Assembly: GCA_034660355.1 (NCBI GenBank)
Contig: JAYEIZ010000160.1
Coordinates: 1-58,733 of the forward strand
DNA from: Nanobdellota archaeon
GTDB lineage: Archaea > Nanobdellota > Nanobdellia > Woesearchaeales > JACPBV01
Length of the DNA: 58,733 nucleotides
Direction of reading: 5' to 3'
In this document: one piece after another, positions 2,938 to 53,088 of the stretch
Numbering within the stretch: position 1 is the first letter of the stretch
How the letters are laid out: the number at the start of each line of letters is the position of its first letter
Notes under the pieces: model-generated
What the model was told of the DNA's origin: nothing
The model's input: only the letters and a program-made list of their open reading frames with translations
Databases searched by the model: none
Translations under genes and position numbers: made by a program

Positions 2938-2960
2938 AATTATTTCCTTTGATTATTTTA

Positions 2961-8125: not shown

Positions 8126-11022
8126 GCAGGTATATCTATCATTCTTGTTATTTTATGATCAAAATCAAATTCGTTATAAACTAAGTCTATTTTAGCATCT
8201 TCATATGCAAAATAACTTTCTGGAGACATAGGATTAAACCTAACTCTTTGAGACATATCTAGTAAAGCTAAATCAGTCCCATCTCCACGTTTAAGTAAAC
8301 TTCTTTGAATATCTTCTAATACATTCATATCTTTTGTATATTCTTTAAGATACTCATCCCACTCTTGCTGCATTTCTCCTAATCTACTTTCTGCATGTTC
8401 AGTCATTACTCCGCCCATGTAATGAGAAGCATGAGCAAATATACGTGTAGTTGTTACAGCTATTTCAGCTGTACTAGAAGGGTCTAACATAAATATCATT
8501 ACAGCAACATTCAAAGCTAACTGTAATTCTATATTATCTCCAACAATCGCACTTATAGCTTCTTTTATAATTGTAGCTATAAGTATCTTAGTTCCTACAG
8601 CTATTAACATAGGTACTATAGCTAATGTAGCTACACCTGCTGCACCGACTGTATATATACAAGTAACTCCTAAAGCATTAGTTAATGTAAATGTTGAACC
8701 TGCTGCTAATGCTTCCCCACCTACTGTAGCAACTACTCCTGCTTCTGTAGATACTGTAGTTACAGCAACTCCTTCTGCAACTGGAGCACCTGAGACAGTC
8801 ATTGTAGATGCAGTAGTAGTAGCTGAACCTCCCGCTGTAGCACCACCTGCTGGAGTAAGAAACATTGAAACTACAACTATAATAACAATTATAATAAGTA
8901 TCATTACAAGCATTTTAAGTAGGTTAAATTTCCTAGCTTTAATGACTTCATAATGAGCTATATAGATAGATAAATGTGAACCTGATAAAAATAGTTTACT
9001 TAAATCTCCAATAGATAATTCATTAATAAAAGCATATATCAGAGGAACCATTAAATCATCTCGATTCCCTAGATTAAACTTAACCATCTCAAAGTGTCCA
9101 GTAGCACCATCCTCTACACGTAGAGCAGCCATAGGAGCTACAACAGTATACGCATTAAGTCCTGATGGAGTACACTCGTAATATGTAATACTTTGTCCTG
9201 CAGTGGTCTCCTCAGAGGCACTAAGCACCATACGTAAAATTCCGCCTACATTTTCGTATACCATATCAGGAGTTAGATATATTACATCTGTTACATTTCC
9301 TTCAGCATCTTGTAATTCAGCTGTGTATGATATTCTCTCAGTAACCTGTAACCAATTAGAAGCTTCTGCTGTAGTATCTCCAGGATTTACTACACCATTC
9401 CCAGCTAAGAAAGCATTTACTTCAGCTAGATTATCTGCTTTGTAACCTACATTATATGTACCTTTTCCAGATGAGCTGTAATAAGTGTATACAAGATCTC
9501 CAGCGTCATTAAACTTAGACATATCTGAATAATATATACCATTCTCTGCACTACCTGTATCAGCATCAATTTCAGCTAAAGTAGTATGTTGAAATTTAAC
9601 GTATGCAAACTGAAAAGCATATTTATAATCTGTAGCAGTAACTATTAATTTATTATATGGTTTAGTATCTTCTTCAGGAGTAGAGTCATACGTTCCTTGA
9701 GTAACTCCCTGAGTACTATATAAATTCTGAAACATATTAAATAGATAACTCATACCTGCTTGAGTAGTATCCCACATACGTACACCAAAATTAACATAGA
9801 TATTATCTATATCTCCAGGATCTGCTCCAGGTTCATTAAGAACAGAGTCAAGCATAGCTTCTCCATCCATATTGAGAATACTTAATAACTCTATAATCTT
9901 CTCTTTTTTACTTGCTTCAAAACTAGTAAAATTTGTATTACTAATTCTTAATGGTATTGCAGGAATTGTTTTATAGTTAGATGGATCTTCATTAACAGGA
10001 TTCTCTGGATCATCTAAGTCAGGATAAGTACCTTCACCTACTTTATATACAAATATATACGTTCTATTAGGATTACTATCTTTGTAATAATAAGACGTGT
10101 AGTGCATATTTAATGGTTTCTTAGGAATAGTATAAGGTAATGGTATTGTAACTCCTGCATCATTATATATATCTAAATTATATGTTTCAGTTATTTCATC
10201 ATAAGTCATTGAACCAAAATCTATATGCCAACGAGTATCTACCAACACACTATCAGATACATTGTTATGATCTGATATAGTAATTATATGGTGAGTACCT
10301 GTTGATTTAGTTAGATTATCTGGAGTAGTTGCAGGGGAAGTAGATACATTAATATCAGTTCCAGTAACTGCATCAGAGGTATGATTATACTCAGAGAGAT
10401 CTACACGAGTATGTACACCTGAGCTAATAGTAACGGTATCTGTAGAGTTTCCAGAAGATGTATTTATTTCTCTATACTCTCCACCAGGTAAAGTATTATT
10501 ACCTACATCATATCCTTTGTTTTCTTGTAACCAATACTTCATCCAAGCAGATGGGATTAATGAACCAACTTTGCTTTGTTCAGCAGTACATGGTACACCT
10601 GTTAAGGTTTGTAAAGCGTTACTTAACTCTTCATAATCTACATAAGTAATATGAGATTCTAATGTAGGGAAATCTTCATAATAATCCCCATCATCAATAT
10701 ATTTAATAAATTTCTTTAGATTACCCTTCATGCTACGGAAAGTAGACATGTATAGTATTTCTTCTGTAATATCTTCATCTTGTAAGATAGCTCGAAGAAT
10801 TACATTAAGTAAGGGATTTTTCTTATCTGTGTCATCAAATAATGGGATATTTTGAACTGCATAGGTGGATATAATAGTATCTTCAGGGTCTTCTAAACCA
10901 AGAAGCATAGCTAATATATCCAACACTACTTCTACAACAAGGATTACAATATCTACAATTATAGTAACAATATCAATAATGACATCAACTACTGTTTCTA
11001 TAATATCTGCTATAAATCCCAT
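8116..11022 (-). CDS. Large virion protein (968 aa) with hydrophobic-acidic N-terminus and C-terminal transmembrane/Gly-Ala-Thr-rich region; candidate membrane-inserting ejection protein
   Basis: N-terminus 'MGFIADIIETVVDVIIDIVTIIVDIVILVVEVVLDILAMLLGL'. Later 'LLKMLVMILIIIVIIVVVSMF' plus several A/G/V/T-rich hydrophobic segments. Sits in the large-virion-protein block of N4-like order. Confidence 0.55.
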   Translation of the reverse strand: MGFIADIIETVVDVIIDIVTIIVDIVILVVEVVLDILAMLLGLEDPEDTIISTYAVQNIPLFDDTDKKNPLLNVILRAILQDEDITEEILYMSTFRSMKGNLKKFIKYIDDGDYYEDFPTLESHITYVDYEELSNALQTLTGVPCTAEQSKVGSLIPSAWMKYWLQENKGYDVGNNTLPGGEYREINTSSGNSTDTVTISSGVHTRVDLSEYNHTSDAVTGTDINVSTSPATTPDNLTKSTGTHHIITISDHNNVSDSVLVDTRWHIDFGSMTYDEITETYNLDIYNDAGVTIPLPYTIPKKPLNMHYTSYYYKDSNPNRTYIFVYKVGEGTYPDLDDPENPVNEDPSNYKTIPAIPLRISNTNFTSFEASKKEKIIELLSILNMDGEAMLDSVLNEPGADPGDIDNIYVNFGVRMWDTTQAGMSYLFNMFQNLYSTQGVTQGTYDSTPEEDTKPYNKLIVTATDYKYAFQFAYVKFQHTTLAEIDADTGSAENGIYYSDMSKFNDAGDLVYTYYSSSGKGTYNVGYKADNLAEVNAFLAGNGVVNPGDTTAEASNWLQVTERISYTAELQDAEGNVTDVIYLTPDMVYENVGGILRMVLSASEETTAGQSITYYECTPSGLNAYTVVAPMAALRVEDGATGHFEMVKFNLGNRDDLMVPLIYAFINELSIGDLSKLFLSGSHLSIYIAHYEVIKARKFNLLKMLVMILIIIVIIVVVSMFLTPAGGATAGGSATTTASTMTVSGAPVAEGVAVTTVSTEAGVVATVGGEALAAGSTFTLTNALGVTCIYTVGAAGVATLAIVPMLIAVGTKILIATIIKEAISAIVGDNIELQLALNVAVMIFMLDPSSTAEIAVTTTRIFAHASHYMGGVMTEHAESRLGEMQQEWDEYLKEYTKDMNVLEDIQRSLLKRGDGTDLALLDMSQRVRFNPMSPESYFAYEDAKIDLVYNEFDFDHKITRMIDIPAHI

Positions 11023-11044
11023 AAGGTAATCCCATTAGATATGC

Positions 11045-11566
11045 TTATAATGGTTCAGCAGATTCAATCTGATCATTAATATTATCTACACCTGTAGAGT
11101 TAATTGCGTCTACTCCTGTAGATGCAACACCTGCAGTAGATACATTAATATTCCACATATTTGCTAGAGTCTGTAAATGCTTATTCTTAGCATTATTTAA
11201 GAACCCTTTAGCTTGTTCACCATATAGAGTAATTTGCTTACCCATAACACTTTCAGGATCAGGGGCTACTTTAGTAGTCTGAATTGTCTGAGCAAATTCG
11301 GTAATCTCTTTTTGACCTAAGAGACTTACCTCAGTATTAGTTTTCTCTTTCCCTAATAGGAAAGCTGTAGCTTGCTGTACAGTTGCCTGTAATGCTCCTA
11401 GATAGACTGTAGCATAATCAGCACCAGTGATTCGTCCTAGTTGATGCTGTGCGTCTACATGAGCAGTAACAGTTTCCATGAGCTTATCAAATGCACCGTC
11501 TCCAGTAACTATGTTATCCTCATCTGTCTGCACATTACTAGTTAAATCACTGATACCTATAGTCAT
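11045..11566 (-). CDS. Structural protein (173 aa), unknown function
   Basis: ORF whose ATG (11566) shares 1 nt with the stop codon of the upstream 196-aa gene, inside the capsid-proximal block. Confidence 0.5.
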   Translation of the reverse strand: MTIGISDLTSNVQTDEDNIVTGDGAFDKLMETVTAHVDAQHQLGRITGADYATVYLGALQATVQQATAFLLGKEKTNTEVSLLGQKEITEFAQTIQTTKVAPDPESVMGKQITLYGEQAKGFLNNAKNKHLQTLANMWNINVSTAGVASTGVDAINSTGVDNINDQIESAEPL

Positions 11567-12156
11567 TATGCGTCTCCACGAGCTTTTTGTGCATCTGCAA
11601 GTCTATCTATTTCTTCTTTAGTCAAGTCAGGTAGGACTTCTACATTAAACTTTTTAGCTAGATAAGCTACTGAAGTTTTCTGACCATTAGGCAGTTTAAC
11701 AGTTTTGAATTTCTGCATCTGAGCATTATTAATCTGATCAAAGATAATCTGCGGTACATGCCAACCATTCTCGTTATTAAAGGGCACAAACTTTTTAATC
11801 ATACGTCCTTTATTAACAGATGAACTACCAACTGTGAATATCATTCCAGATTGTAAATTAAGTAAAGGATCATTAGGACTAATTATAATTCTACGTAGTG
11901 TCATAGCTCGCTGTTCTTTAGTTAATTTAACTTCTACTTTCTTAACAGTCTTTGCTATTTTAACTTCTTCACTTGCTTTAACTGTATCAAGTATTTCAAT
12001 TACTTTTTCTGTAGGAGCTTCTTTGTATGTGCCCTGTTCTACTGCAGTAAGTGTTTCACGTAGTTTCTTCACACCAGTAGAATGATGTAGTTCAATATTA
12101 TGTGAAGACAGTTCAAGAATTAGATCTTCTTTTTCCATATTTTTAATATCTGACAT
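11566..12156 (-). CDS. Hypothetical protein (196 aa) downstream of the capsid gene
   Basis: ORF with N-terminal helix-hairpin-like segment 'KEDLILELSSHNIELHHSTGVKKLRETL'. No function recognised. Confidence 0.5.
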   Translation of the reverse strand: MSDIKNMEKEDLILELSSHNIELHHSTGVKKLRETLTAVEQGTYKEAPTEKVIEILDTVKASEEVKIAKTVKKVEVKLTKEQRAMTLRRIIISPNDPLLNLQSGMIFTVGSSSVNKGRMIKKFVPFNNENGWHVPQIIFDQINNAQMQKFKTVKLPNGQKTSVAYLAKKFNVEVLPDLTKEEIDRLADAQKARGDA

Positions 12157-12184
12157 TTAATATATCCTTTTGTTATTTAATAAA

Positions 12185-12214
12185 GTCCCTAGAAGCTTTT
12201 ATACCTCTAGGGAC
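12185..12214 (-). terminator. Stem-loop immediately downstream of the major capsid gene
   Basis: gtccctaga (12185-12193) pairs with tctagggac (12206-12214): 9 bp, GC-rich for this genome. On the minus strand it is followed by TTTATTAAAT. Confidence 0.55.
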
Positions 12215-12223
12215 AATAAGTGC

Positions 12224-13501
12224 TTATAGGTTTTCTAAAGCAGTCCAAATAATACCAAGACGTTCTGGACGTAATGCCATGAAGCCATAATAGTACTTGA
12301 TTGAATAGAACCCAATTTCCCCATAAGGATCATCACGATTAGCAATTTCCTTACCAGGAGCTTTATGGTTGATAACAAACTTAACAGATTTACCGTCAGT
12401 CTGGAAACCTATTGTAGTAAATGCACCATCACCAACAACAAGCATTGGATAGATGTCTGTACCATTAAAGCCATCACCTGCAGTATCCGCAGCAGAAGCA
12501 CCACCGCCTGGAGAATATTGCATTTCAGGTACTATAATAATCCTGAACTGGTCAATAGTACCAATTTCACCTAGCACAGCATTACCAGCATCTGCATACT
12601 TTTCTACAGAAATAAATGCTGGATTATTATGTAGGTCTTTCATTGCTCTAAATGTAGGTATCATTTCTGAACATGTATACAGAAGATAGCCACCATTAAT
12701 AGTTCTTGTATCGACCATACGAGAACCAGAAATGATTTTAGTCTGTTTAGGTGTCTTGTTATTGGCAAGAGCAATAGACAAGTTCATCAGATCTGTATAT
12801 GTAACTACTTCATCCACAGTAATTTTAGTAGTTCCACCCATGAAATAGGTAGTACCATTAGCTGTAGCTGTAGTAAGTAGATCAGCCTGAAGTTCAGCTT
12901 CAGTCATCTCATTAGCAGCTACAAGAGCTTCTTCTGTGATATGAGAAAGTAGCTCAGTATCAGAGTCAAAGTCCATAGATTCCTGTGAGTACTCTGTGAA
13001 GAAACCTCGTTTAAGAAGTTCCCCTTCAATCTGAAGTCTAGTGAAACCAACTCTATTAACTCGTCCACCATTCTCTGTAAGAGCAGGAATCTTTTTTAGA
13101 ATAGTACCAGTATCCCTAGAAGAACCATACAAGAACTGACCATTCTCACCTACTGTACCATGAGCACCTGCTGCAGTAATAGCAAGAGCTTCAGTAGCAT
13201 ACGTAGATCCCTGAAGAACTCCAGCTGCATTCCAAGCAGACCATGTACCAGCAGTTAGAGATGTACCAGCAGCATCAATACCCTGATCATTTACATTACG
13301 TTCATCTAGCAATGGAACATATACATCTTGTTTAATTTTCTTTCCCATATGCTTAGGCATACCTTTTACACTAGCTAGAGGCAGAAAATACTGTTTATCA
13401 CGTACAGCAATAAGAGCTTTCTTATTGTAGTAATCTGTACGAGCTTGAGCTCCAATACTAGAAGCTGACCCTCCGAGAGGGTCGTTATAATTATGAGCCA
13501 T
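12224..13501 (-). CDS. Major capsid protein (425 aa)
   Basis: Size and position (portal, small ORF, acidic scaffold, this ORF, hairpin) fit the HK97-type/N4 gp56-like slot. RBS AAAGGA. No direct motif proof. Confidence 0.75.
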   Translation of the reverse strand: MAHNYNDPLGGSASSIGAQARTDYYNKKALIAVRDKQYFLPLASVKGMPKHMGKKIKQDVYVPLLDERNVNDQGIDAAGTSLTAGTWSAWNAAGVLQGSTYATEALAITAAGAHGTVGENGQFLYGSSRDTGTILKKIPALTENGGRVNRVGFTRLQIEGELLKRGFFTEYSQESMDFDSDTELLSHITEEALVAANEMTEAELQADLLTTATANGTTYFMGGTTKITVDEVVTYTDLMNLSIALANNKTPKQTKIISGSRMVDTRTINGGYLLYTCSEMIPTFRAMKDLHNNPAFISVEKYADAGNAVLGEIGTIDQFRIIIVPEMQYSPGGGASAADTAGDGFNGTDIYPMLVVGDGAFTTIGFQTDGKSVKFVINHKAPGKEIANRDDPYGEIGFYSIKYYYGFMALRPERLGIIWTALENL

Positions 13502-15114: not shown

Positions 15115-17193
15115 TCAAGCATTACTATTTTTACTTTGCATTTGTTTAAATGCTTCTTGGTCTAGTTTACTTAATCTATCATGTTCTCGTTTCTCCATAT
15201 CCTGTTTATGTGATAGTTCCATTTGCTGTTCTTTATTAGCATCAAGAACTCCACTCTCTTTATTGAGGAAATCTAAATCAGTCTGATCTGAACCACTATG
15301 TAGACTACGTGCTTTAGCTTGCTCAGTAGCAGTCTTAGCTTGTTTGAGACCTACATCAACTGCATTCTCTTGTCCTTTAGCTTGTTCATTAACAATCTTA
15401 GCTTTAAGTAATTCTAACTCTAACATAGCTTTCTCTTGAGCTAATGGATCTGGTTGTGCTTGATAATCTGAAATACGTTTAGATAATTCAGGCATCTTAC
15501 GTAAGGTAGCTATATCAGCTAATACAATTTGGCTTAATTCCAATGGTAAATTATTTCCCATTGTCTGTAGCATAAAACTAAGTTCAGAAGCTTTTTGTTC
15601 ATCAGCCTCAGCAGTAGCTATTTTAAGTTTAATATCATATTCACCACCTAAATCATTACGATCTATTTCAACAAACTCTTCATTAGTAATACGTATAATT
15701 TCTGTATCTTCTAACCATTCAGAGTTCATAGAAATTATCTTACGACCAATCTGTGTAAGTCCATTAGCTAATCTACGTAAGATACCTAATTCTCTTTTAG
15801 ATGTAGCATCTAATGCAGATCTAATTCCTGTAGCTGATACTCCTAGAGCTTGTCCAGATATACCACTACTGAATGCTTTAACTCCAGTAAGTGATTCTGC
15901 TTCATTATTCTGCATAGCTATAACTTCCATAGCAGAACGAGGAATTTCAGGATACTTGCCCATATGGAATGCTTGATTAGGATCTACAGCAGCATTAAAC
16001 TGATAATCTTCACCACGATCATATTTACGTGAATTAACTACATCAAGAGCATCTTTACGAATACCTAATTGACCATTAGCACTCCTACCAATGACATCTA
16101 TAATACCTCTAGTAACAGCTCCAATGATGCGTTGATTATCTTCTAGTAATGCTGCATCAGGTTCACCATACGTAGCTTTTCTTTTAAGTAAATACTGCAC
16201 ACTTACAAATGGGAGTTTCTTATCGGGATAAGGATTTTCTTCCATACGTATTAAAGTATCTCCTACCCATGTAGCTACAAAAGGTTCTACTTCACCTGTA
16301 TCATTAATGTCCCAATAACCCCAATATTCATGAGCAATTATACGTTTACGTGGATCATCTTTAAATTTAAAGTTTCTATCTTCTCCAGCAAGTTCATGAT
16401 CTGGAGTATTAAGTATTGATGATGATTCTATATTAATATTATCTAAATTTTTATACCTGCCATCTTTCTTTAATTCAGATAAAGAAGTTTCAAAACTCCA
16501 TATAGCAAATTTTGCATCTGAGAATTTACCACTACATGTAGGATCAATTATAATATTATTATAATCACATATATCTAAAGTAGGTTGATTTTTAACTACA
16601 ACAGTTTCTTCTACCTTTTCTGTACCTACTACTATTTCCTGTACAGTAGGTTGCCCTGTATTTGGATCTAGTACTGTACGAGTCTCTGTTATGTCTTTAT
16701 GTACTGTACGAGTAGCTTCTTCGTATTCCCATCCTGTACGTACGATAACAGTACCTTCATCAACTGCAGTACGTATATACTCATCAATAAAACTAGTTTT
16801 ATCTAACTTGTTATTGAACTGATAATTTAATACAAGACCATTTTGTGTAGCAGTTTTCGTATCTTCAAATGTAACAGGAGATGTTTGGAAAAGATCATCT
16901 GTAGAGAGGAATGGTTCAGCTAATGAAGAGTATCTCCACTCAGCTTGTTTACGAGCTACTTTAGGTACAATCTTAGATCTACCTTTTTTAGTTTTAAGAT
17001 TCTGTTTGCCATTAAGTATATTAATCCAAGCATCTACTTGAACTGTATGAGCAGTATGATCTACTTTAGCACTTTCATAGTCTGCTTGTAATTCCCTAAG
17101 TGTAGGGGCATTCTCCCAATCAGTAAGATCTTTAGCAATCTCTTCTTGAGCTTCAAATGATTTATAAGTTTTATCATTACCATTATCATTCAT
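15115..17193 (-). CDS. Portal protein (692 aa)
   Basis: Size and position upstream of scaffold and capsid. The C-terminal tail is coiled-coil and acidic. Matches the N4 gp59 slot. Confidence 0.75.
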   Translation of the reverse strand: MNDNGNDKTYKSFEAQEEIAKDLTDWENAPTLRELQADYESAKVDHTAHTVQVDAWINILNGKQNLKTKKGRSKIVPKVARKQAEWRYSSLAEPFLSTDDLFQTSPVTFEDTKTATQNGLVLNYQFNNKLDKTSFIDEYIRTAVDEGTVIVRTGWEYEEATRTVHKDITETRTVLDPNTGQPTVQEIVVGTEKVEETVVVKNQPTLDICDYNNIIIDPTCSGKFSDAKFAIWSFETSLSELKKDGRYKNLDNINIESSSILNTPDHELAGEDRNFKFKDDPRKRIIAHEYWGYWDINDTGEVEPFVATWVGDTLIRMEENPYPDKKLPFVSVQYLLKRKATYGEPDAALLEDNQRIIGAVTRGIIDVIGRSANGQLGIRKDALDVVNSRKYDRGEDYQFNAAVDPNQAFHMGKYPEIPRSAMEVIAMQNNEAESLTGVKAFSSGISGQALGVSATGIRSALDATSKRELGILRRLANGLTQIGRKIISMNSEWLEDTEIIRITNEEFVEIDRNDLGGEYDIKLKIATAEADEQKASELSFMLQTMGNNLPLELSQIVLADIATLRKMPELSKRISDYQAQPDPLAQEKAMLELELLKAKIVNEQAKGQENAVDVGLKQAKTATEQAKARSLHSGSDQTDLDFLNKESGVLDANKEQQMELSHKQDMEKREHDRLSKLDQEAFKQMQSKNSNA

Positions 17194-17528
17194 TATTTCT
17201 TTACCTCTAAATGTTTAGTATACTGACTAGTAAATGTTTTAAGAGAATCTTTTACTTTATATATCTTTATACCATCTATAGTGTCATGGTAAATAGTATA
17301 CTTAGTAAATAGATTATTATGTATACCTTCTACAATAGAACAATATATATCATCACCTCTAACTATTTCAGATACAAAGTATTTCCATATTTTAGCAAAA
17401 GATATTCTAGCTATATTAGAATCAGCTATGATAAGTCCTGCAATCTCATATCCTTTTAATACACGACTGTATCTGTAGAATAATATACACCCATCTTCTT
17501 GGATTAATTTACAGTGTTTAAATATCAT
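17193..17528 (-). CDS. Hypothetical protein (111 aa) translationally coupled between the KAS-like gene and the portal gene
   Basis: ATGA overlap with the KAS stop (17525-17528) and 1-nt overlap with the portal ATG (17193). No motif recognised. Confidence 0.5.
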   Translation of the reverse strand: MIFKHCKLIQEDGCILFYRYSRVLKGYEIAGLIIADSNIARISFAKIWKYFVSEIVRGDDIYCSIVEGIHNNLFTKYTIYHDTIDGIKIYKVKDSLKTFTSQYTKHLEVKK

Positions 17529-18526
17529 TTAATAATCCTTACACTAGCTGCAGAGAATGTATTTCCCATACCTGCACCTAAACTAATAAACCTACCAGTA
17601 TGCTCTTCTATAGCTAAAGCAGTTTCTAGTGCTGTAGAAGCTCCTAGAGTGTGTCCTATACGTAATTTATATGTATGTGTAATAATATCCCCAAAAATCT
17701 GTTTAATGATTTCTTCTTCAGGAAAATTAGTATCTGTATATGTCCCATGAGGTTTAATAAAGTCATAAGCACCTTTCATCACATCAGTAATAACATCATG
17801 ATACCCTTCTCCTGAAGGAAGCATTCCTATAGGATTTGAGGAATGTTCACAAGTAACTGCAATCTTTTCTATTTCAGCAAGAGGAGTATTTTTAGATATA
17901 TTTATACTTCTTTCAGATTCAAATATACCAATATGACATCCTTGACCTAAATGAAATTTAACTATATCAGGATTACCTTCTTCGGAAGCTTTTTTACATA
18001 AACCAGTTTTTGCAAATACATGTAAATTTTCTTCTGCAGTAGCATTATCTAATGCCACTACTACTACAGCATCTAGTGTTTTAGTATCTATCAGCATTTT
18101 AGCAATCTGCCAAGAAGAATGTCCGCTAGTACAGCTAGAACAATTTGTAGTGATGTAATCAAATTTACCTAAACTATTTGCTATTTTACCTGCATATATG
18201 TGCGTTGTGCCTAGTAACATGACTTTATGTACTGGATAAGCATCACTAAGTTTAACTGTAGATTTATGTCCTGACCAAACAGAACCTCCTGTAGCTAAAA
18301 TAAATCCTATTTTTATTTCAGGATTACTAGTCAATTTTTTAATTTGTTCTGCTGTATAGGGATTTTTGTTTAGAGTATTTCTGAATATAATATCAGGTAA
18401 TAATCGTAAACCTTTAGCTACTACCATTCCTCCATCAGTAATCATATTAACATATTGAGGATGTGGGATATTTTCAATTAGCTGTAATTGAGTAGAGTAA
18501 TTCATATTAGAATGAGTTAAGAACAT
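17525..18526 (-). CDS. Beta-ketoacyl-ACP synthase I/II-like condensing enzyme, short form (333 aa)
   Basis: Thiolase-fold KAS signatures are visible. These are active-site Cys context 'TTNCSSCTSGHSSWQIA', 'FHLGQGCHIG', His motifs 'KPHGTYTDTN' and 'RIGHTLGASTALE', and C-terminal 'LGAGMGNTFSAA'. RBS GAGGAA lies inside the ACP gene end. Confidence 0.8.
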   Translation of the reverse strand: MFLTHSNMNYSTQLQLIENIPHPQYVNMITDGGMVVAKGLRLLPDIIFRNTLNKNPYTAEQIKKLTSNPEIKIGFILATGGSVWSGHKSTVKLSDAYPVHKVMLLGTTHIYAGKIANSLGKFDYITTNCSSCTSGHSSWQIAKMLIDTKTLDAVVVVALDNATAEENLHVFAKTGLCKKASEEGNPDIVKFHLGQGCHIGIFESERSINISKNTPLAEIEKIAVTCEHSSNPIGMLPSGEGYHDVITDVMKGAYDFIKPHGTYTDTNFPEEEIIKQIFGDIITHTYKLRIGHTLGASTALETALAIEEHTGRFISLGAGMGNTFSAASVRIIK

Positions 18527-18843
18527 GTATTAAATTCCTCTACATCTTTAATTGTATATGTTTTGTTTTGGTTAGTTATAACAAATTCTTTGATAGATTG
18601 TACTGTATATTCCCCAGATACCATATAGTTTTCACACGTATCTTCAGCAATACCAAACATATCTCCAAGCCATACAAATAAAACCATAATACCTAAACTA
18701 TCAAGTAAACCTAATTTAACAAGATTATCTTGCATAGATGTAACACCTGTAAAATCATCTGTATCAGTAGTGGTTTCTTCTTGTATGATTTTATTTAATA
18801 TTTGCATAAATTCAGTATCAGTAATCATAAATTGTGTAGTCAT
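18517..18843 (-). CDS. Acyl carrier protein-like (phosphopantetheine-binding) protein, 108 aa
   Basis: 'LVKLGLLDSLGIMVL' contains the DSL Ser-attachment motif of carrier proteins. I place the start at ATG 18843 (AGGAG 5 nt upstream) rather than the track start at 18879. It overlaps the KAS start by 10 nt. Confidence 0.7.
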   Translation of the reverse strand: MTTQFMITDTEFMQILNKIIQEETTTDTDDFTGVTSMQDNLVKLGLLDSLGIMVLFVWLGDMFGIAEDTCENYMVSGEYTVQSIKEFVITNQNKTYTIKDVEEFNTCS

Positions 18844-18935
18844 AATGTCTCCTATAAAGATTAGCCACACAGTATACATATAATATATAACAATATAAAG
18901 CTAATATTTATAAACATTTATAAAGGAATAAATTA

Positions 18936-19613
18936 ATGTACTATCATGGAGGATTTAACGCTAGAAATATACATGAATTTAATAACAATTATAATGGTAT
19001 AAATACTGGTGATAACACAGGAGGGTTCTATTTCACAAATGATTATGCACAGGCTAATAGTTATGCTGTAGAGAGTTTTAAAGGAAAAATAGAGGATAAA
19101 TATTATATGTTATCTAAAGATAAAATAAAACAAATAGCTAAACATATTGGAGCATATTCAAGTAATATGGTGGATGTAATAGATAGATTTGTAGAAATCT
19201 ATACAAATAATAAATCTACAAAAGATACTATAGAAGTAAGCCTAAATATTAAAAATCCAATAATAATCGACTGTGATTATAAGGTAATGGATCATGAATT
19301 AAAAAGTGGAATATGTGCTTTTATCCGCAAACTTAATTATATTAATAGTTATGCGGATGATTCATATATAGATCATGGATATGAGTTTTTCTATAATAAT
19401 AAGCACTTCTTTTTTAGTAAGGAACTATTACAAGAAATAGAAGAAAATTATAGCCAAGAGGATTATGAAGAACCTGATCCTGATTTGATACCTAATTGTT
19501 TAATATTGAAAAATGTTAATGATAATATATCTGAATATATGGATTACTCTTTTGATGTAACTATCATGTTTAATCCATATGACATAGAAATTATAAATAA
19601 AGGAATAAATTAA
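18936..19613 (+). CDS. Possible ADP-ribosyltransferase-like protein (H-Y-[E/D] type, ART-PolyVal-like), 225 aa
   Basis: N-terminal 'MYYHGG...' and 'GGFYFTNDYAQANSYA' resemble ART motifs 1 and 2. C-terminal 'FDVTIMFNPYDIEII' resembles motif 3. Recognition by eye only. Confidence 0.4.
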   Translation: MYYHGGFNARNIHEFNNNYNGINTGDNTGGFYFTNDYAQANSYAVESFKGKIEDKYYMLSKDKIKQIAKHIGAYSSNMVDVIDRFVEIYTNNKSTKDTIEVSLNIKNPIIIDCDYKVMDHELKSGICAFIRKLNYINSYADDSYIDHGYEFFYNNKHFFFSKELLQEIEENYSQEDYEEPDPDLIPNCLILKNVNDNISEYMDYSFDVTIMFNPYDIEIINKGIN

Positions 19614-20446
19614 TGTCTAAAATAATGCTAGCCAAAGACTATAAAGATCTAAAAAAAGAATTACAATTCCCTGTAATGTGTTCAGAGAAAATAGATGGAA
19701 CTGCTGCAGATATTGACAGTATGGAAGCTTTGTCTCGACAAGATAAACCATATCTATCTGTACCTCATATTATACAAGAACTATTAAATATTCCTGGAGC
19801 TGTACTAGGAGAATTACATATCCCAGGAATGTCCTTTAAAGACTCCTCAGGAGCTATTAGAGGACATACTCCTGATGATAGAATCAAACTAGGTGTATAT
19901 GATTATATCACTCCTCTGACAAAATCTATGGGATATATGGAACGTATAGAAATGTTGAAAGATTTAATAGCTAGATTAGGATTACAGCATGTATTTATAA
20001 TCCCATATCATATCTTTACTACACATGCAGAGATAGAAGAATATTATAGTAAAATAGTTAATTCATCTCCTCTAGCTGAAGGTATTTGTATACGTCCTAT
20101 AAATCATCTATTCCAGCCAGGTAAACGTTCATGGGATCTATTACGTAAGAAGAAAGAAGATACTTTAGATCTTATGGTTACTGGATTTGAAGAAGCAATG
20201 ACACCAAAGAAAGAACCTAAAGGAATGGTAGGTAGAGTTATTATATCCTACAAAGGTGAATCTATAGGAGCTGGTGCAGGTAAACTAAAACACTCAGAAC
20301 GTAAAGCTTTATGGGAAGAGTTCAAAGCTAATAAATACGTACCTAAACTAGCTGAGATTACATATAAACCAGATCCATCATATGTAGCTCTACGTGAAGC
20401 TAGATTCACTAGATGGAGAGATGATAAAACAATACCAGACGCATAA
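19613..20446 (+). CDS. ATP-dependent DNA ligase (minimal NTase + OB type, 277 aa)
   Basis: Motif I 'EKIDGT', motif III 'VLGELHI', IIIa 'LGVYDYI', IV 'EGICIRP', V 'LLRKKKEDTLDLMVTG', followed by an OB-like C-terminus. Confidence 0.75.
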   Translation: MSKIMLAKDYKDLKKELQFPVMCSEKIDGTAADIDSMEALSRQDKPYLSVPHIIQELLNIPGAVLGELHIPGMSFKDSSGAIRGHTPDDRIKLGVYDYITPLTKSMGYMERIEMLKDLIARLGLQHVFIIPYHIFTTHAEIEEYYSKIVNSSPLAEGICIRPINHLFQPGKRSWDLLRKKKEDTLDLMVTGFEEAMTPKKEPKGMVGRVIISYKGESIGAGAGKLKHSERKALWEEFKANKYVPKLAEITYKPDPSYVALREARFTRWRDDKTIPDA

Positions 20447-20450
20447 GGAT

Positions 20451-20675
20451 ATGACTAAAATGAATAGATCACAGCAACTGTGTAAATTAATTAAAGCTAA
20501 TAGACTTGAACTAAAAATGACACAAGAAGATCTATCAAGAAAGTGTGGAGTATTACAGACCACCATATCTAAAATAGAATGTAATCAACATTCCCCTTCC
20601 CTAGAATTATATATTAAACTATTGTCGGGTTTGGATAAACATATTGAAATACATAAAGGAAATAATAAATGCTAA
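20451..20675 (+). CDS. XRE-family helix-turn-helix transcriptional regulator
   Basis: 'LIKANRLELKMTQEDLSRKCGVLQTTISKIECNQHSPSLELYIKLLSGL' is a classic Cro/C1-type HTH. The track start 20394 overlaps the ligase, so ATG 20451 or 20460 (AAGGA upstream) is more likely. Confidence 0.7.
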   Translation: MTKMNRSQQLCKLIKANRLELKMTQEDLSRKCGVLQTTISKIECNQHSPSLELYIKLLSGLDKHIEIHKGNNKC

Positions 20676-21442
20676 CAACTTATGATGGGTGCATGGGCTC
20701 AGGCAAAACTGCAAAAATACTAGAACTAATTGAAGAGTTAGAAGAGCATAATAAATTGGTATTAGTATATAAACCTAAGCATGATACACGAGGACTTATA
20801 GATTATATTGAATCACGAAATGGTAAATCCCATGAAGCTCTTAGAATATGTGAAGATTTTGCAGATGTAGAATTTGCATTAAAACGAATGAAAGTAGATA
20901 CAATGTTCTTCAGCGAAGTACATTTCTTTACAGATACTCCTGCATTTATAAAACTAGTTAAACATATATTAGCTCAAGGAATAAATGTTGTAACTGAAGG
21001 TCTTGATATGTCTTGGAAAGGCACTATGTTTGATACCCCTACAGCATTACGAGAAATTGCAGATAAATCATACACTCTTACAGGAACATGCGAGTGCGGT
21101 AATAAGAGTACCCATACAAGTAAATTAGTAGACTTAGATAGTGAATTTACTGTTGGTGGTGATGATATGTATATAGCTCATTGTGAACATTGCTGGCAAG
21201 TAGCTAATACATTATCAGATAAAAAAACTGCAGAAGATATGGTTAATAGTCCTAGCCACTATACTAATGGATCTATCGAATGTATTGAAGCTATGGAAGC
21301 ACAACTAACACCAGAAGAGTTTAGAGGATACTTAAAAGGATGTGTTATTAAATACATTTGGAGAGAGCGTCATAAAGATGGAATTGAATCCATCAAGAAA
21401 GCTATATGGTATCTTCATAGATTAACCACATTAAAGGAGTAA
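20669..21442 (+). CDS. tdk: Thymidine kinase fused to a C-terminal DUF3310-like domain
   Basis: P-loop 'GCMGSGKT', 'FSEVHFF', 'GLDMSWKG' and the Zn-type lasso 'CECG...HCEHC' mark the TK. Residues about 195-257 ('SPSHYTNGSIECIEAMEAQL...GCVIKYIWRERHKDG...KKAIWYLHRL') resemble the phage DUF3310 module. Confidence 0.85.
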   Translation: MLTTYDGCMGSGKTAKILELIEELEEHNKLVLVYKPKHDTRGLIDYIESRNGKSHEALRICEDFADVEFALKRMKVDTMFFSEVHFFTDTPAFIKLVKHILAQGINVVTEGLDMSWKGTMFDTPTALREIADKSYTLTGTCECGNKSTHTSKLVDLDSEFTVGGDDMYIAHCEHCWQVANTLSDKKTAEDMVNSPSHYTNGSIECIEAMEAQLTPEEFRGYLKGCVIKYIWRERHKDGIESIKKAIWYLHRLTTLKE

Positions 21443-21447
21443 GATAA

Positions 21448-21768
21448 ATGTTGAATGATAATAATAATAATATCACTATATCATGGGATTACTGGGGAGC
21501 TATATGGAAAATAACTGCTAAAGTAGTTTACCATAGTGAATTAAAAATCGTAAGTGTACAGAATATTAAAGCTATAGATCTTGATGGGGATGAAGTCCCC
21601 ATAGAATGTATGTCATCTAATATACAGATGAAAGATACAGTTAAAGATGAAATCGAAGAGTGTTTAGTTGAAAGTTTAGTTCTTCAAGGTGTGATAGCAG
21701 ATCCGTCAAGACTTTCAGGAGACTTTCAAAACGAACACAAATGGTATGTACAAAGTGAGGAGAAATAA
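21448..21768 (+). CDS. Hypothetical protein (106 aa)
   Basis: ORF with RBS AAGGAG, tightly packed between tdk and thyX. Confidence 0.5.
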   Translation: MLNDNNNNITISWDYWGAIWKITAKVVYHSELKIVSVQNIKAIDLDGDEVPIECMSSNIQMKDTVKDEIEECLVESLVLQGVIADPSRLSGDFQNEHKWYVQSEEK

Positions 21769-21771
21769 CTA

Positions 21772-22587
21772 ATGCAAATAATTGAACCAAGCTTTGAAAT
21801 AATGGATTGGGAAGATCCTATTAAACATATCGAAAGATGTGGAAGGGTTTGTTATAAATCTGAAGATAAAATAACTGATACTTCAGCAGAGAAATTTGTT
21901 GAGATGCTTATTAAGAAAGGGCATCTATCCGTATTGGAACATGCAAGTTGTGTTATACATAAATTTCAAAGCACTAACCTTGATGATATTGTAGCTTTAA
22001 TCCCTGAGATAAAGTCAGTTCAACAAATAAAAGACTTATTCCAATGGAAAAGTTATACTAGGCAACAAGAATTATTAGCCCCAAAACTTAGAGTTAAGCA
22101 CCATGTAACAGTTAAATTTATCTGTAACCGAGGATTCACTCATGAATTAGTAAGACATAGAGGATATAAATTTCCTGATGAGCAAGTGATTAAAGCTAAG
22201 TATTCTCAGGAATCTACTCGCTACTGTAATTATTCTAGTGAGGCTTTCGGTAGTGAAATATCTGTAATTAGACCAGTGTGGTTAGATGAGGATATTAAAA
22301 CAGAACACCTCATCAATAAAGAAAAACTAAACAGACTCAGAGAATGGGAAGTCAGTTGTAATCAAGCAGAGACATCATATTTTTCAATGATACAGAATGG
22401 AGCTAAGCCAGACGATGCTCGTGATATGTTACCTATAGGGCTAAAGACAGAAATTATCTGTACGACAACTTTAGCTCACTGGGAACATATATTCAATTTA
22501 AGGTGTGCAAAGGCAGCTCATCCAAGTATGAGACAGCTTATGATACCCCTAAGAAAGGAATTTATCAAAAGAGGGTATATAGTATGA
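21772..22587 (+). CDS. thyX: Flavin-dependent thymidylate synthase ThyX
   Basis: ThyX signature 'ELVRHRG...' followed by 'YSQESTRY' (RHR...S-Q-x-S-x-RY), with a short insertion between the two halves. N-terminal 'CGRVCYKS...KGHLSVLEH'. Confidence 0.85.
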   Translation: MQIIEPSFEIMDWEDPIKHIERCGRVCYKSEDKITDTSAEKFVEMLIKKGHLSVLEHASCVIHKFQSTNLDDIVALIPEIKSVQQIKDLFQWKSYTRQQELLAPKLRVKHHVTVKFICNRGFTHELVRHRGYKFPDEQVIKAKYSQESTRYCNYSSEAFGSEISVIRPVWLDEDIKTEHLINKEKLNRLREWEVSCNQAETSYFSMIQNGAKPDDARDMLPIGLKTEIICTTTLAHWEHIFNLRCAKAAHPSMRQLMIPLRKEFIKRGYIV

Positions 22588-22772
22588 AAAAATCAAAATT
22601 AGCTTGGTTTTATGCTAACTTAATCTTTGGTGCTGCTATTGCTTTGATTTTAGCTTCAATTCCAGAATGGGTTTTATTTTGGATTTGGGTTATCGGCTGG
22701 TTTGTCCCTGACTTAATTTTAGTTGGGCATCTTATTAGACAACGGTGTTTAATTATACGAAAAAGAGATTAA
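22584..22772 (+). CDS. Small membrane protein (62 aa, two predicted TM helices)
   Basis: ATG 22584 overlaps the thyX stop (ATGA). 'LAWFYANLIFGAAIALILASI' and 'WVLFWIWVIGWFVPDLILVG' are hydrophobic. The track start 22503 lies inside thyX. Confidence 0.55.
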   Translation: MKKSKLAWFYANLIFGAAIALILASIPEWVLFWIWVIGWFVPDLILVGHLIRQRCLIIRKRD

Positions 22773-22791
22773 TAGAAATAAGGAAGATTAA

Positions 22792-23256
22792 ATGAATATT
22801 GATAAGATTAAGAAATTCGTAAAAGAATACAAAGAACAGGATAATAGAATAACATCATTCCCATATATGTTTATATTACAGGAAAGATATACAGTAGCAG
22901 TTAGTGACGATTATGCTGATTCTAATTGCATGGTTGAATATATCAATGTAGATGATGAAATATTTTTATCAGAAGAAGAGTATAAAGAACTATTTGCTAA
23001 TAGTGAAATTGATGAAGACGGGCAAGAAGTTGCCTTTGATGAAGACGGTGAATTGCTTTATAAAGATGAATTTAAAGAAGTATGTTCTAATTTCTATTGG
23101 AAAGATGTCGGATTTTTCTTTACTGAAAAAGCACTTAATGAACATGTAGAGGCTAATCATTATCATTATGGTATGACAAGGAGTTACGTTAAGAAACTAT
23201 TCCGAAATCCTGAAATGGAGATGATTTTAAAAACTATGTTTGAAATTGCAGGATAG
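22792..23256 (+). CDS. Hypothetical acidic protein (154 aa)
   Basis: ORF with RBS AAGGAAG. No motif recognised. Confidence 0.5.
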   Translation: MNIDKIKKFVKEYKEQDNRITSFPYMFILQERYTVAVSDDYADSNCMVEYINVDDEIFLSEEEYKELFANSEIDEDGQEVAFDEDGELLYKDEFKEVCSNFYWKDVGFFFTEKALNEHVEANHYHYGMTRSYVKKLFRNPEMEMILKTMFEIAG

Positions 23257-23269
23257 GATATAAAATAAT

Positions 23270-23545
23270 ATGAGAATAGTTCATGAAGATAATTTTGAAT
23301 TATTAGAGCAAGGTAAAATCCTTGCAGATATTCAAGTCGAAATAACTTATGATGTAGTAAATGCTGATGCAGATGTTATAAATATTGTTAATATTCGTGT
23401 CAAAGTCCTTACTCATGATAGAAGATATAATGACTGGGAGTATATAATACCAGAACAATCGTTATATAGTATGATTGAAAAGTTCTTTTATCAAGATAAA
23501 CAGCAAGATTTTTTAATTGAGATAGCAGATTTAGATAGTTATTAA
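23270..23545 (+). CDS. Hypothetical protein (91 aa)
   Basis: ORF in the co-directional island. No motif recognised. Confidence 0.5.
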   Translation: MRIVHEDNFELLEQGKILADIQVEITYDVVNADADVINIVNIRVKVLTHDRRYNDWEYIIPEQSLYSMIEKFFYQDKQQDFLIEIADLDSY

Positions 23546-23609
23546 ACTGTACAGGAACTAAATATACCTGTACCTTAAGTACCCAAAATAATTTAAATAG
23601 GAATAATTA

Positions 23610-25376
23610 ATGACAAACAATAATATAGAAGCAATAGATGAATATCTTGATAGAACAGATTGGAGAGTTAATGCAAACGCTAATCAGGGATATTCATTAG
23701 GTGGATTGATACTAAACACAACAGGTAAAAATATAGCTAACTATTGGATGACTAAAATATATGAACCATCTATAGGTCAAGCCCATAAGAATGGAGATAT
23801 ACATATTCATGATCTTGATATGTTTGCAGGGTATTGTTGTGGGCATAGCCTCAGAAACCTCTTAAATGAGGGCTACAATGGTATTCCTGGAAAGATCTCC
23901 AGTAAAGCTCCTAAACATCTTTCTAGTGCTCTAGGGCAAATGGTGAACTTTATAGGTACACTTCAGAATGAATGGGCTGGTGCTCAAGCATTCAGTTCAT
24001 TTGATACTCTATTAGCTCCATTTGTACGAGTAGAGAAGCTTACATATAAACAGATAAAGCAATTAATAGAACAGTTTATCTTTGATCTAAATGTACCTTC
24101 TAGGTGGGGAACACAGACACCATTCTCTAATCTAACATTTGATCTAGTTTGCCCTAATGATCTGAAAGATATTAAACCACTAGTTGGAGGTAAAGAAGTA
24201 GACTTCACTTATGGAGATCTGCAAGTAGAAGCTGATATGCTAACAAAAGCTTTCCTTGAAGTTATGTTAGCTGGAGATGGTAACAGTAGAGTATTCTCAT
24301 ACCCTATCCCTACGTTTAATATTACTAAAGAATTTAACTGGGATAGTGAAATATCTAATATTCTTTTTGAGTATGCAGGTAAATATGGAACTCCATATTT
24401 CCAGAACTTTATTAATTCAGATATGGATCCATCAGATGTAAGAAGCATGTGTTGTAGATTGTCTTTAGATCTAAATGAGCTCAAGAAGCGTGGTGGAGGA
24501 CTATTTGGTGCATCTGAGCAAACAGGTTCAGTTGGAGTAGTTACTCTTAATATGGCTAGAATTGGTGGACTATATAAAGAAGAGAAATCTTTCTTTAGTC
24601 GTATAAATCATCTAATGGAAATTGCTACAAGTTCATTAGAAAAGAAACGTGAAACATTAGAGCATTATCTAAAGCATGATCTGTATCCATACACTAAACG
24701 ATATGTAGGTACCTTTAGAAATCATTTCTCTACCATTGGAGTGAATGGTATGAATGAAATGTGTCTAGCTTATTTAGGTAAAGATATTACCTCTAAAGAA
24801 GGTCAAGCATTCAGTCTTAAAGTATTAGACTTTATGAGAGATAAGCTAATAGATATACAAGAACGTACTGGACATATGTATAACCTTGAAGCTTCACCTG
24901 CTGAGGGTGCTTGTTATAGGTTTGCTAAACTAGATCAGAGCATGTATCCTAATGAAACTATACAATCTGGTACAGCAGATGCTCCTTACTATACAAACTC
25001 TTCACAGCTACCTGTAGGAAAGGTATCAGACCCATTTAAGATTATTGAACTACAAGAAGGTCTTCAAACTAAATATACTGGAGGTACAGTTCTACATTTC
25101 TTTTTTGGTGAAAAGATAGATGGAGCAAGTGCAAAGAAGTTTGTTAAACTAATATGCAATAAAACAAGACTACCATATATTACAATTTCTCCAGTATTTA
25201 CTATCTGTAAAACTCATGGGTATATTAAAGGCAAACACGCAACTTGTCCTACTTGTGGAGAAGTTACTGAAATCTGGGAGAAAGTAATGGGATATTATCG
25301 TCCTATAGATTGGGCTAATAAAGGTAAACAAAGTGAAATCAATGAACGAATTACAGTAACTGTAGGAGATAAATAA
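23610..25376 (+). CDS. nrdD: Anaerobic ribonucleoside-triphosphate reductase (class III RNR) NrdD
   Basis: 'DVRSMCCRLSLD' active-site Cys pair, C-terminal Zn site 'CKTHG...CPTCG' and glycyl-radical motif 'KVMGYYRPIDWANKGKQSE'. Confidence 0.9.
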   Translation: MTNNNIEAIDEYLDRTDWRVNANANQGYSLGGLILNTTGKNIANYWMTKIYEPSIGQAHKNGDIHIHDLDMFAGYCCGHSLRNLLNEGYNGIPGKISSKAPKHLSSALGQMVNFIGTLQNEWAGAQAFSSFDTLLAPFVRVEKLTYKQIKQLIEQFIFDLNVPSRWGTQTPFSNLTFDLVCPNDLKDIKPLVGGKEVDFTYGDLQVEADMLTKAFLEVMLAGDGNSRVFSYPIPTFNITKEFNWDSEISNILFEYAGKYGTPYFQNFINSDMDPSDVRSMCCRLSLDLNELKKRGGGLFGASEQTGSVGVVTLNMARIGGLYKEEKSFFSRINHLMEIATSSLEKKRETLEHYLKHDLYPYTKRYVGTFRNHFSTIGVNGMNEMCLAYLGKDITSKEGQAFSLKVLDFMRDKLIDIQERTGHMYNLEASPAEGACYRFAKLDQSMYPNETIQSGTADAPYYTNSSQLPVGKVSDPFKIIELQEGLQTKYTGGTVLHFFFGEKIDGASAKKFVKLICNKTRLPYITISPVFTICKTHGYIKGKHATCPTCGEVTEIWEKVMGYYRPIDWANKGKQSEINERITVTVGDK

Positions 25377-25377
25377 T

Positions 25378-51233: not shown

Positions 51234-51250
51234 TGATGAGGAAATCTGAA

Positions 51251-52749: not shown

Positions 52750-53088
52750 ATGACAAAAACGTATAAAATAAAAGATATTAATGGAAAAATTCTTTTTGAA
52801 GCAGAAGCTGAAAGTCTTAAAGAATGTATAGAGTTTGCTGTTTGGGGAAGTGTCAATCTTAATAAGGCAAATCTTGAAAATACTAATCTTACAGGAGCTA
52901 ATCTTATAGGTGCAGAACTTAAAGGAGCGAATCTTAAAAATGCTATTCTTGTAGAAGCTAACCTTAGTTATGCAGATCTACGTGATGCTGACCTTAGATG
53001 TACATATATTAAAGGAACAAACTTTACAGAAGCAAATCTAAGAAATGCTAACTATGAAGGAGCATCTCTTTGGAGAGATAAATCTTAA
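52750..53088 (+). CDS. Pentapeptide-repeat protein 5 (112 aa)
   Basis: Cap 'YKIKDINGKILFEAEAESLKECIEFAVWGSVNL', then about 14 pentapeptide units. Confidence 0.9.
   Translation: MTKTYKIKDINGKILFEAEAESLKECIEFAVWGSVNLNKANLENTNLTGANLIGAELKGANLKNAILVEANLSYADLRDADLRCTYIKGTNFTEANLRNANYEGASLWRDKS

Follow-up and report, generated by a model that had tools for sequence, protein, structure and literature searches.

Why would a marine phage carry, directly before the gene of its portal protein, a carrier protein and a condensing enzyme of the type used in fatty acid synthesis? The question is raised by a stretch of 58,733 bp from contig JAYEIZ010000160.1, an assembly filed under Nanobdellota archaeon (the whole stretch is called the window in the following). 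On its minus strand an earlier note had described an acyl carrier protein (ACP), a ketosynthase (KS) and a small open reading frame (ORF) of 111 amino acids (aa), orf111, next to the portal gene. Our analysis indicates that ACP and KS constitute a phage-specific, ancient pair that has kept its catalytic residues. It is found in at least three phage lineages, with hundreds of contigs from the sea and other environments, always in a late or virion operon. We give about an even chance to the reading that the two proteins act as a private carrier and ketosynthase, similar to the rhizobial NodFE and AcpXL systems, which would borrow the type II fatty acid synthesis (FASII) of the host to build a phage-specific acyl chain.

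The locus comprises four consecutive minus-strand ORFs between positions 15115 and 18879. In reading direction these are:

18517-18843, minus strand: carrier protein (ACP-like), 108 aa; full ORF 18517-18879
17525-18526, minus strand: ketosynthase, 333 aa; fold of the beta-ketoacyl-ACP synthases (KAS) I/II
17193-17528, minus strand: orf111, a lineage-restricted small protein of 111 aa with a predicted truncated GNAT-like core
15115-17193, minus strand: portal protein (context), 692 aa; PF23899 (SU10_portal) at 4.9e-137, phrog_1216 (portal) at 8e-231

The ORF positions given in the earlier note were exact. The carrier starts at the ATG at 18843, where the homologues start as well and which has an AGGAGA box 4 nt upstream; this yields the protein of 108 aa. 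From the coordinates it follows that ACP and KS overlap by 10 nt, KS and orf111 by 4 nt and orf111 and the portal gene by 1 nt, as had been stated. The overlaps had been taken to imply co-translation with the virion genes. While the overlaps themselves are real, they are no special evidence of a coupling to the portal: each gene downstream of the carrier has a Shine-Dalgarno sequence of its own (GAGGA, AAGGA and AGAGG). Stop/start overlaps with individual ribosome binding sites are the ordinary packing of a phage operon; they indicate co-transcription and do not by themselves establish a functional tie to the portal. Promoter- and terminator-like matches around the cassette were not enriched over shuffled sequences, and Rfam and tRNA scans of the window returned no Rfam families and no tRNAs. 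Judging from the portal, which is 50-60% identical to Schitoviridae portals, from the large terminase subunit (TerL), from a gene for a T7-type RNA polymerase (PF00940) and from a giant ORF that is cut off at the left end of the window, the phage is N4-like.

Is the first gene indeed a carrier protein? It had been proposed to carry a DSL attachment motif, and this motif as well as those quoted from the KS are all present. Among 49 distinct homologues Asp48-Ser49, within the motif LLDSLG, is the sole strictly conserved core. After it comes a hydrophobic helix in which Trp58 and Phe63 are conserved. The same two residues form the only invariant columns in a joint alignment of the carriers from lineage 1 (the relatives of the window) and lineage 2 (an unrelated phage group, see below). 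When compared with the PDB, the lineage-1 profile matched a peptidyl carrier protein (2my5, E 0.0018), followed by ACPs and DltC. The joint profile of both lineages matched 84 PDB sequences at E<=1. Carrier proteins dominated the top of this list (E 0.004-0.3), including ACPs, peptidyl carrier proteins, DltC, E. coli AcpP and NodF (1fh1), and the two alignments that were printed register on the DSL serine. In the alignments shown for the two profiles, Asp48-Ser49 falls on the DSL of the peptidyl carrier protein 2my5 and of the chloroplast ACP 2ava. Curated models gave lower scores: 13.4 bits for the PP-binding family PF00550 (cut-off 20.8, E 0.097), and E values of 0.03-0.07, far below the cut-offs, for the ACP and DltC models of NCBIfam. 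From the residue conservation and the profile matches we consider the identity as a carrier protein well supported, with Ser49 as the presumed site of phosphopantetheine attachment. The protein is acidic, with an isoelectric point of about 4.0 (4.0-5.0 across lineages 1 and 2), and about 20 aa longer than typical ACPs. Its helix II differs from that of FASII ACPs in being hydrophobic (FFVWLSELFGI) and not acidic. This may point to recognition by a phosphopantetheinyl transferase (PPTase) of the Sfp type or to a stable complex with the KS. A tblastn search with the window carrier against 50,697 GenBank phage records gave no match, even at E<=10.

For the KS the evidence extends to the fold. Also here the curated models stayed below threshold, with 15.9 bits for PF00109 and 16.4 bits for PF02801 (cut-off 20.8 for both) and 37-44 bits for the KAS models of NCBIfam, compared to equivalog cut-offs of 455-494 (best 43.9 versus 455). 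A profile search of the PDB, in contrast to these scores, returned Streptococcus pneumoniae FabF (1ox0) at an E value of 5.5e-11. In this comparison the Cys, the first His and the Lys-x4-His of the phage protein align with the FabF motifs TaCsS, aHGT and K..tGH, such that the Cys/His/His positions named in the earlier note are equivalent to the catalytic positions of FabF. Throughout an alignment of 38 KS sequences Cys132, His260, Lys287 and His292 are invariant, as is a C-terminal motif GAGMGN, the counterpart of which in FabF is GFGG. An AlphaFold2 model of the KS (predicted local distance difference test score, pLDDT, 87.3; predicted template modelling score, pTM, 0.89) gave 1,042 PDB matches at E<=0.001 in Foldseek; the top 50 listed were all KAS or ketosynthases of polyketide synthases (PKS), with query-based TM-scores (TMq) of 0.63-0.79. 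The best of them, the actinorhodin KS, FabB and FabF, had TMq values of 0.75-0.79 at 13-17% sequence identity. Taken together, profile alignment and model strongly support a thiolase-like KAS I/II fold with an equivalent Cys-His-Lys-His set and thus a predicted condensing activity, in agreement with the original assignment. In length the phage KS falls about 80 residues short of FabF, and the solved KAS I/II structures matched have 390-450 aa. Judging from the motif spacing, the missing segment presumably is the one that leads from the last helix to the final glycine-rich strand.

Where do such ketosynthases occur? A search of 5.8 billion proteins yielded KS homologues in 163 clusters. The 120 clusters listed were 45-65% identical to the window KS. 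Many of the sequences stem from marine metagenomes, those of Tara among them, and lie on contigs of up to 70 kb. The nearest viral structures in BFVD are two KS proteins of uncultured phages. Across 185,579 species-representative genomes the sole KS match was a phage contig mis-binned into a metagenome-assembled genome of Hyphomicrobiales. Together with the low identity of the best PDB matches, this argues against a recent capture from a host. In PHROGs, all three families (ACP, KS and orf111) are annotated as 'unknown function' (phrog_35856 in case of the KS, 1.4e-85); the genes have therefore been seen before and not been interpreted.

The arrangement recurs well beyond the window. We define lineage 1 by 81 related loci, namely one Logan contig (L002) and 80 IMG/VR loci. 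The order KS-orf111-portal was found in all of them, and tblastn placed the ACP upstream in 72 of the 81; in the nine loci without a match the sequence starts at the KS gene or shortly before it. Most frequently the spacing is -10/-4/-4 nt. Compared to the window, identities are 39-52% for the KS, 31-60% for orf111 and 61-71% for the portal. Ratios of nonsynonymous to synonymous substitutions (dN/dS) of 0.15 for the ACP, 0.17 for the KS and 0.25 for orf111, next to 0.10 for the portal, show that the three genes are under purifying selection. The number of KS clusters, the synteny in 81 loci and these dN/dS values confirm that the trio is no chance arrangement. It is also not part of the N4-like core gene set, as had been suspected: in Salmonella phage FSL SP-076 the lysis cassette and the portal are direct neighbours, a KS tblastn matched none of 492 GenBank phage records with a portal homologue (a single unrelated record, MW202545.1, was hit), and in a portal-seeded survey the metagenomic N4-like relatives with portals of 57% identity or less lacked the pair, except for one branch represented by locus L203.

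That the three genes form a unit, in contrast, could not be upheld. Direct reading of locus L188 revealed a lysis cassette, orf111 (1973-2278) and the portal gene, with neither ACP nor KS; relatives of this type have portals 62-66% identical to that of the window. In L189 and L210 orf111 is present and the KS is absent, as judged by tblastn over about 2 kb of upstream sequence. Locus L191 (portal 66%) has none of the three genes. These patterns imply a stepwise gain or loss. Locus L190, too, has an orf111 homologue directly before the portal gene and no ACP or KS.

Conversely, the pair exists without orf111. A distant N4-like branch that we call lineage 1b (L203 and L222, portal identity 52%) carries a diverged KS, which tblastn detected in both loci. 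Direct reading of L203, the GC content of which is 0.36, gave at 1271-2968 the order of a 178-aa ORF, a 103-aa carrier with the motif DSLD, a 284-aa KS and the portal gene, onto which the KS gene abuts. This is the shortest KS version seen. It matches the lineage-1 hidden Markov model (HMM) at 3e-37, keeps the Cys, His, Lys and His residues and, with 22.7 bits for PF02801, is the sole homologue that passes the cut-off. Lineage 2 is a group unrelated to the N4-like phages that comprises at least 55 IMG/VR contigs with genomes of about 55 kb and a GC content of about 50%, exemplified by the 57-kb uncultured phage MW202545.1. Both a 93-aa carrier and a KS were found in 55 of 55 loci. The KS sequences are 56-77% identical within the lineage and 28% identical to the window KS, with invariant catalytic residues, and the carrier has the motif DSLD and is homologous to the window carrier (hhalign probability 99.3%, E 2e-20). 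Behind the pair lies the gene of a conserved 146-aa protein, which was detected in 47 of the 55 loci; five of the eight others end within the KS gene. We tested this protein as an orf111 homologue or GNAT, and HMM, hhalign and PDB profile comparisons all gave no signal; the similarity to orf111 is confined to the order of predicted strands and helices, as seen by eye. An overlap of the ACP and KS genes is found in all three lineages, 10 nt being commonest in lineage 1 and 4 nt present in most lineage-2 loci, with 11 nt in L203. Since the pair recurs without orf111 and orf111 without the pair, the mobile core is the overlapping ACP-KS pair.

A third gene of fatty acid synthesis lies 19 kb away in the packaging module:

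37663-38088, minus strand: FabZ, 3-hydroxyacyl-ACP dehydratase; PF07977 at 5.4e-33
36060-37661, minus strand: TerL (context), directly downstream of FabZ; phrog_38 at 8.9e-87
38090-38899, minus strand: N4 gp69-like, weakly TerS-like gene (context); phrog_2109 at 1.3e-70, weak match to phrog_2538 (terminase small subunit)

By its sequence this FabZ is canonical and has kept its catalytic residues. It scores 114 bits with PF07977 (cut-off 23), and in an alignment with cellular FabZ the active-site His47 (in GHFP) is conserved in 20 of 21 sequences and Glu61 is invariant. Its nearest cellular relatives are about 51% identical and lie in lpxD-fabZ-lpxA clusters. As a protein search gave only cellular FabZ (51-54%), a one-off capture from a host was considered; this was ruled out by an alignment-seeded scan, which revealed FabZ in about 33 related viral loci, always between the gp69-like/TerS-like gene and TerL. 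The identities of these loci to the window are 60-70% for the gp69-like protein, 67-81% for TerL and 34-51% for FabZ. FabZ and the ACP-KS trio occur together on seven contigs (3300047669_000545, 3300046532_001206, 3300046467_001894, 3300032278_000185, 3300004460_000078, 3300031658_003088 and 3300024327_000003). The FabZ matches under phage names in GenBank, for the most part short records without annotation and in one case a contig of a Salmonella genome, look like bacterial DNA filed under such names. Lineage 2 is devoid of FabZ, both in 50 kb of MW202545.1 and in all 55 loci. FabZ is therefore a clade-specific accessory without being an obligate partner, so that of the proposed set of ACP, condensing enzyme and dehydratase the identification of FabZ stands and the obligate unit does not.

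Two observations concern the packaging genes themselves. The packaging operon of the window is headed, upstream of the gp69-like gene, by a 219-aa protein (38889-39548, minus strand) with a RepL-like match (PF05732, 9.6e-06), which is 30-49% identical in related loci. In the 69.9-kb relative L002, the gene before the adaptor-like gene (1-942), at the position of TerL in the window, encodes 862 aa with LAGLIDADG and Hom_end matches, which suggests an intein-containing terminase.

Which further enzymes could the phage supply? In agreement with the earlier note, Pfam scans of the 47 ORFs of the window found no PPTase, FabD, FabH, FabG or FabI. The about 14 kb of the 73,123-bp contig that lie outside the window have little room for genes, since the open frame at 1-2955 (minus strand), probably an N4-type virion RNA polymerase, runs off the left end with at least 984 aa. 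For orf111, the function of which the earlier note had given as unknown, we obtained no sequence match in Pfam, NCBIfam or the PDB. A profile search of 1.84 billion representatives returned 24 proteins of 50-123 aa, apart from one marginal match of 833 aa (E 1e-4). The AlphaFold2 model (pLDDT 83.6) has the topology b-b-b-a-b-a-b-b, and the top 50 Foldseek matches in the PDB were all GNAT acyltransferases, at low similarity (E 0.05-0.3, TMq 0.37-0.52). The model spans only the b-b-a-b-a-b-b GNAT core, and the Q/R-x-x-G-x-G/A loop that binds the CoA pyrophosphate was not visible in the alignment. We thus treat the predicted truncated GNAT-like core as a weak lead and not as a finding. With the Foldseek matches all being GNATs, the alternatives of an AcpS-type PPTase or a hot-dog thioesterase were unsupported. 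As a portal-tied N4 core gene orf111 was rejected as well: FSL SP-076 does not have it, and a tblastn search of the GenBank phages returned only noise.

How could the pair work? In the explanation that we favour, its core would be an old, strongly diverged pair of the acpP-fabF type, whose overlapping genes would provide carrier and KS in fixed proportion, made together with the late (virion) genes. A PPTase of the host would convert the carrier into the holo form at Ser49, and host FabD would load it with malonate. The KS, with an acyl primer on Cys132, would decarboxylate the malonyl-carrier by means of His260, His292 and Lys287 to give a 3-oxoacyl-carrier. Host FabG would reduce this product, FabZ of the phage would dehydrate it in the N4-like clade, and host FabI might or might not act afterwards. 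The acyl chain on such a carrier would unlikely be used by the lipid acyltransferases of the host and would be reserved for a phage-specific acceptor, for which orf111 is a candidate, though non-obligate, off-loading or priming acyltransferase. Inferred are the phosphopantetheinylation, the recruitment of FabD, FabG and FabI from the host, and the chemistry of product and acceptor. Catalytic and attachment residues that stay intact over deep divergence favour real chemistry, while the divergence from the cellular enzymes, the odd helix of the carrier and the overlapping genes argue against a simple booster of capacity.

Systems with such a division of labour are known. In rhizobia, the specialised ACP NodF and the KS NodE draw on housekeeping FASII and thereby provide Nod factors with unusual unsaturated fatty acids. 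The phage pair resembles them as a two-gene set of a dedicated carrier and a Cys-His-His KS which, having no acyltransferase, ketoreductase or enoyl reductase of its own, would depend on the FASII of the host; NodF was also among the PDB carrier matches of the phage profile. The pair differs from NodF/NodE in the low identity of its KS to solved KAS structures and its shorter length, in gene overlaps within a virion operon and in that no NodA-like acyltransferase was identified. A second precedent is the cluster acpXL-fabZXL-fabF2XL-fabF1XL-lpxXL, which makes the very-long-chain fatty acid of rhizobial lipid A, a dedicated acyltransferase delivering the chain. A private ACP, KS and FabZ with the other steps taken from the host are the parts of this phage clade as well. 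In the phage, however, FabZ is located in the packaging module, there is one KS versus two, and an LpxXL-type acyltransferase is missing. The list of parts matches that of NodFE and AcpXL; the resemblance would be functional and not phylogenetic. With the bacterial acpP-fabF pair the phage genes share gene order, fold and catalytic residues; they differ in model scores of 37-44 versus 455-494 bits, in the hydrophobic helix II and the GAGMGN loop, and in that their genes overlap whereas the bacterial ones are expressed separately.

Several points weigh against the private carrier-ketosynthase system. None of the curated ACP and KAS models is matched above its trusted cut-off, such that the family assignment rests on the profile, fold and catalytic-residue evidence. 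With a hydrophobic helix II it is uncertain whether host AcpS, FabD and FabG would recognise the carrier. The absence of FabZ from lineage 2 and the separability of orf111 mean that the accessory steps differ between lineages. Finally, in genomes of such high synteny the placement beside virion genes may reflect no more than an insertion at the boundary of a module.

Could ACP, KS and FabZ instead be ordinary auxiliary metabolic genes (AMGs), which boost the bulk fatty acid or phospholipid synthesis of the host late in infection, e.g. for envelope maintenance or membrane fluidity, without any phage-specific product? We consider this unlikely, even if it is the strongest of the alternatives. 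The pair acpP-fabF is a standard adjacent pair in bacterial fab clusters, and FabZ of the window is canonical and close to its cellular relatives. Fatty acid genes have also been reported from phages before. For Alteromonas phage R22Y, a member of the Schitoviridae, a lone ACP has been put forward as an AMG (PMC11705849), a lone ACP was described in Rhodobacteraceae prophages (PMC8224337), and viral reads of fabF, fabG and fabZ were noted in deep-sea viromes from 1,000 m (PMC10653327). These reports share with our locus that FASII-type genes are borne by phages, R22Y even belonging to the same family; they differ in that they concern single host-like genes or read counts and not a diverged ACP-KS pair in a structural operon. 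A bulk booster would be expected to be host-like, as FabZ is, but KS and carrier are extremely diverged from their cellular homologues and have no close cellular relatives. In addition, the recognition helix of the carrier is non-acidic, overlapping genes are unlike the large excess of ACP in FASII, and lineage 2 manages without FabZ. A large survey of N4-like viruses mentions no acyl or fatty acid genes (PMC10654107), and our literature search found no published description or functional characterisation of the ACP-KS module. What appears new is a phage-borne, specialised ACP-KS system of type II, the proposed mechanism of which is plausible. Up to now the fatty acid genes of phages have been regarded as scattered AMGs of host-like character; the present pair suggests that phages operate small acyl-building machinery themselves, beyond topping up that of the host.

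A different use is suggested by the position of the pair. An acyl-carrier donor might acylate a virion or ejection protein, or the pair itself might be packaged, which by analogy would help internal particle proteins to engage host membranes; acyl-ACP-dependent activation of RTX toxins by GNAT-like enzymes of the HlyC family is a comparable reaction. In favour of this, the pair lies inside the morphogenesis operon in three lineages, and lineages 1 and 1b have it directly before the portal gene. Its neighbours in lineage 2 are tail genes on one side and, on the other, Cys/Gly-rich, putative ejection proteins that precede a soluble lytic transglycosylase (SLT), one of them with a CCCS cysteine string. 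In addition, orf111 has a predicted GNAT-like core. Against it, the GNAT matches of orf111 are weak (E>=0.05), the third gene of lineage 2 has no detectable similarity to orf111 or to GNATs, orf111 occurs without ACP and KS, and module boundaries often take up unrelated cargo. The virion proteins of the window are Cys-poor, without an obvious acylation motif and without Cys-rich candidates for acylation. We therefore rate virion-directed lipidation as improbable. Put more generally, the pair could be a virion-assembly accessory that places an acyl or short polyketide-like group on internal or ejection proteins or is packaged with them. This version, to which we assign a similarly small chance, would explain why the pair is kept in the morphogenesis operons of three podophage lineages and why the lineage-2 site is directly upstream of cysteine-string and Gly-rich proteins. 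If true, tailed phages would possess a lipidated membrane-penetration device. As to these lineage-2 proteins, in MW202545.1 (L001) a 412-aa protein with a C-terminal CCCS-repeat cysteine string (11423-12661) is encoded directly downstream of ACP, KS and the 146-aa protein, next to a 639-aa Cys/Gly-rich protein (9500-11419) followed by the SLT transglycosylase; both are presumably ejection proteins.

That the two proteins are non-catalytic decoys or inhibitors of host FASII and its ACP partners, or co-opted structural proteins, as the shortening of the KS (333 aa, 284 aa in L203, versus 390-450 aa), a missing segment that, by comparison with FabF, appears to include a C-terminal loop and the sub-threshold model scores could indicate, is very improbable, given that the catalytic tetrad and the Asp-Ser are invariant down to about 28% KS identity across independent lineages, that the genes are under purifying selection and that decoys rarely keep all catalytic residues.

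For the private carrier-ketosynthase system, candidate uses of bespoke acyl chains are the remodelling of lipid A or membranes, a signal molecule, or the lipidation of particle proteins. Since carrier and KS are two small, easily expressed proteins, the question of phage acyl chains becomes approachable. A minimal KS of 284-333 aa with a hydrophobic-helix carrier is also of interest for the enzymology of fatty acid synthases and PKS.

Further observations concern the surroundings of the cassette and the remainder of the window. Between the ACP gene and the lysis cassette lies a 7-kb island on the opposite strand (18936-25878, plus strand), with a weakly ART-PolyVal-like protein, an ATP-dependent DNA ligase, a helix-turn-helix protein, a thymidine kinase fused to DUF3310, ThyX, the anaerobic ribonucleotide reductase NrdD and a MazG/dUTPase_2 protein. 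Up to a distance of 10 kb from the KS, none of the 81 related loci has any of the island genes; in 23 of these loci an M15 endolysin lies at most a few kb upstream of the KS.

A late protein of 604 aa (28160-29974, minus strand) contains about eight tandem repeats of approximately 48 aa with the pattern VVFESA.T.YISCC.VDTNK.V.GY.D.GN.GYGTAIVGTVSGTSISFG, in which the SCC motif is present in all repeats but one (SCY). Its odd Pfam matches (HBV 'X' protein at 1e-13 with 0 stretches, TRASH) look compositional. A family A DNA polymerase extends over two overlapping plus-strand ORFs, with the exonuclease and the N-terminal polymerase part in 55642-57705 and the C-terminal polymerase part in 57677-58411; this could result from a frameshift, from a gene that is split or from an error in sequencing. 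The early/middle region encodes on the plus strand five pentapeptide-repeat proteins (PF00805, E 1e-29 to 1e-55; 41151-41555, 41888-42691, 44133-44741, 51233-51889 and 52750-53088), an unusual number for one phage.

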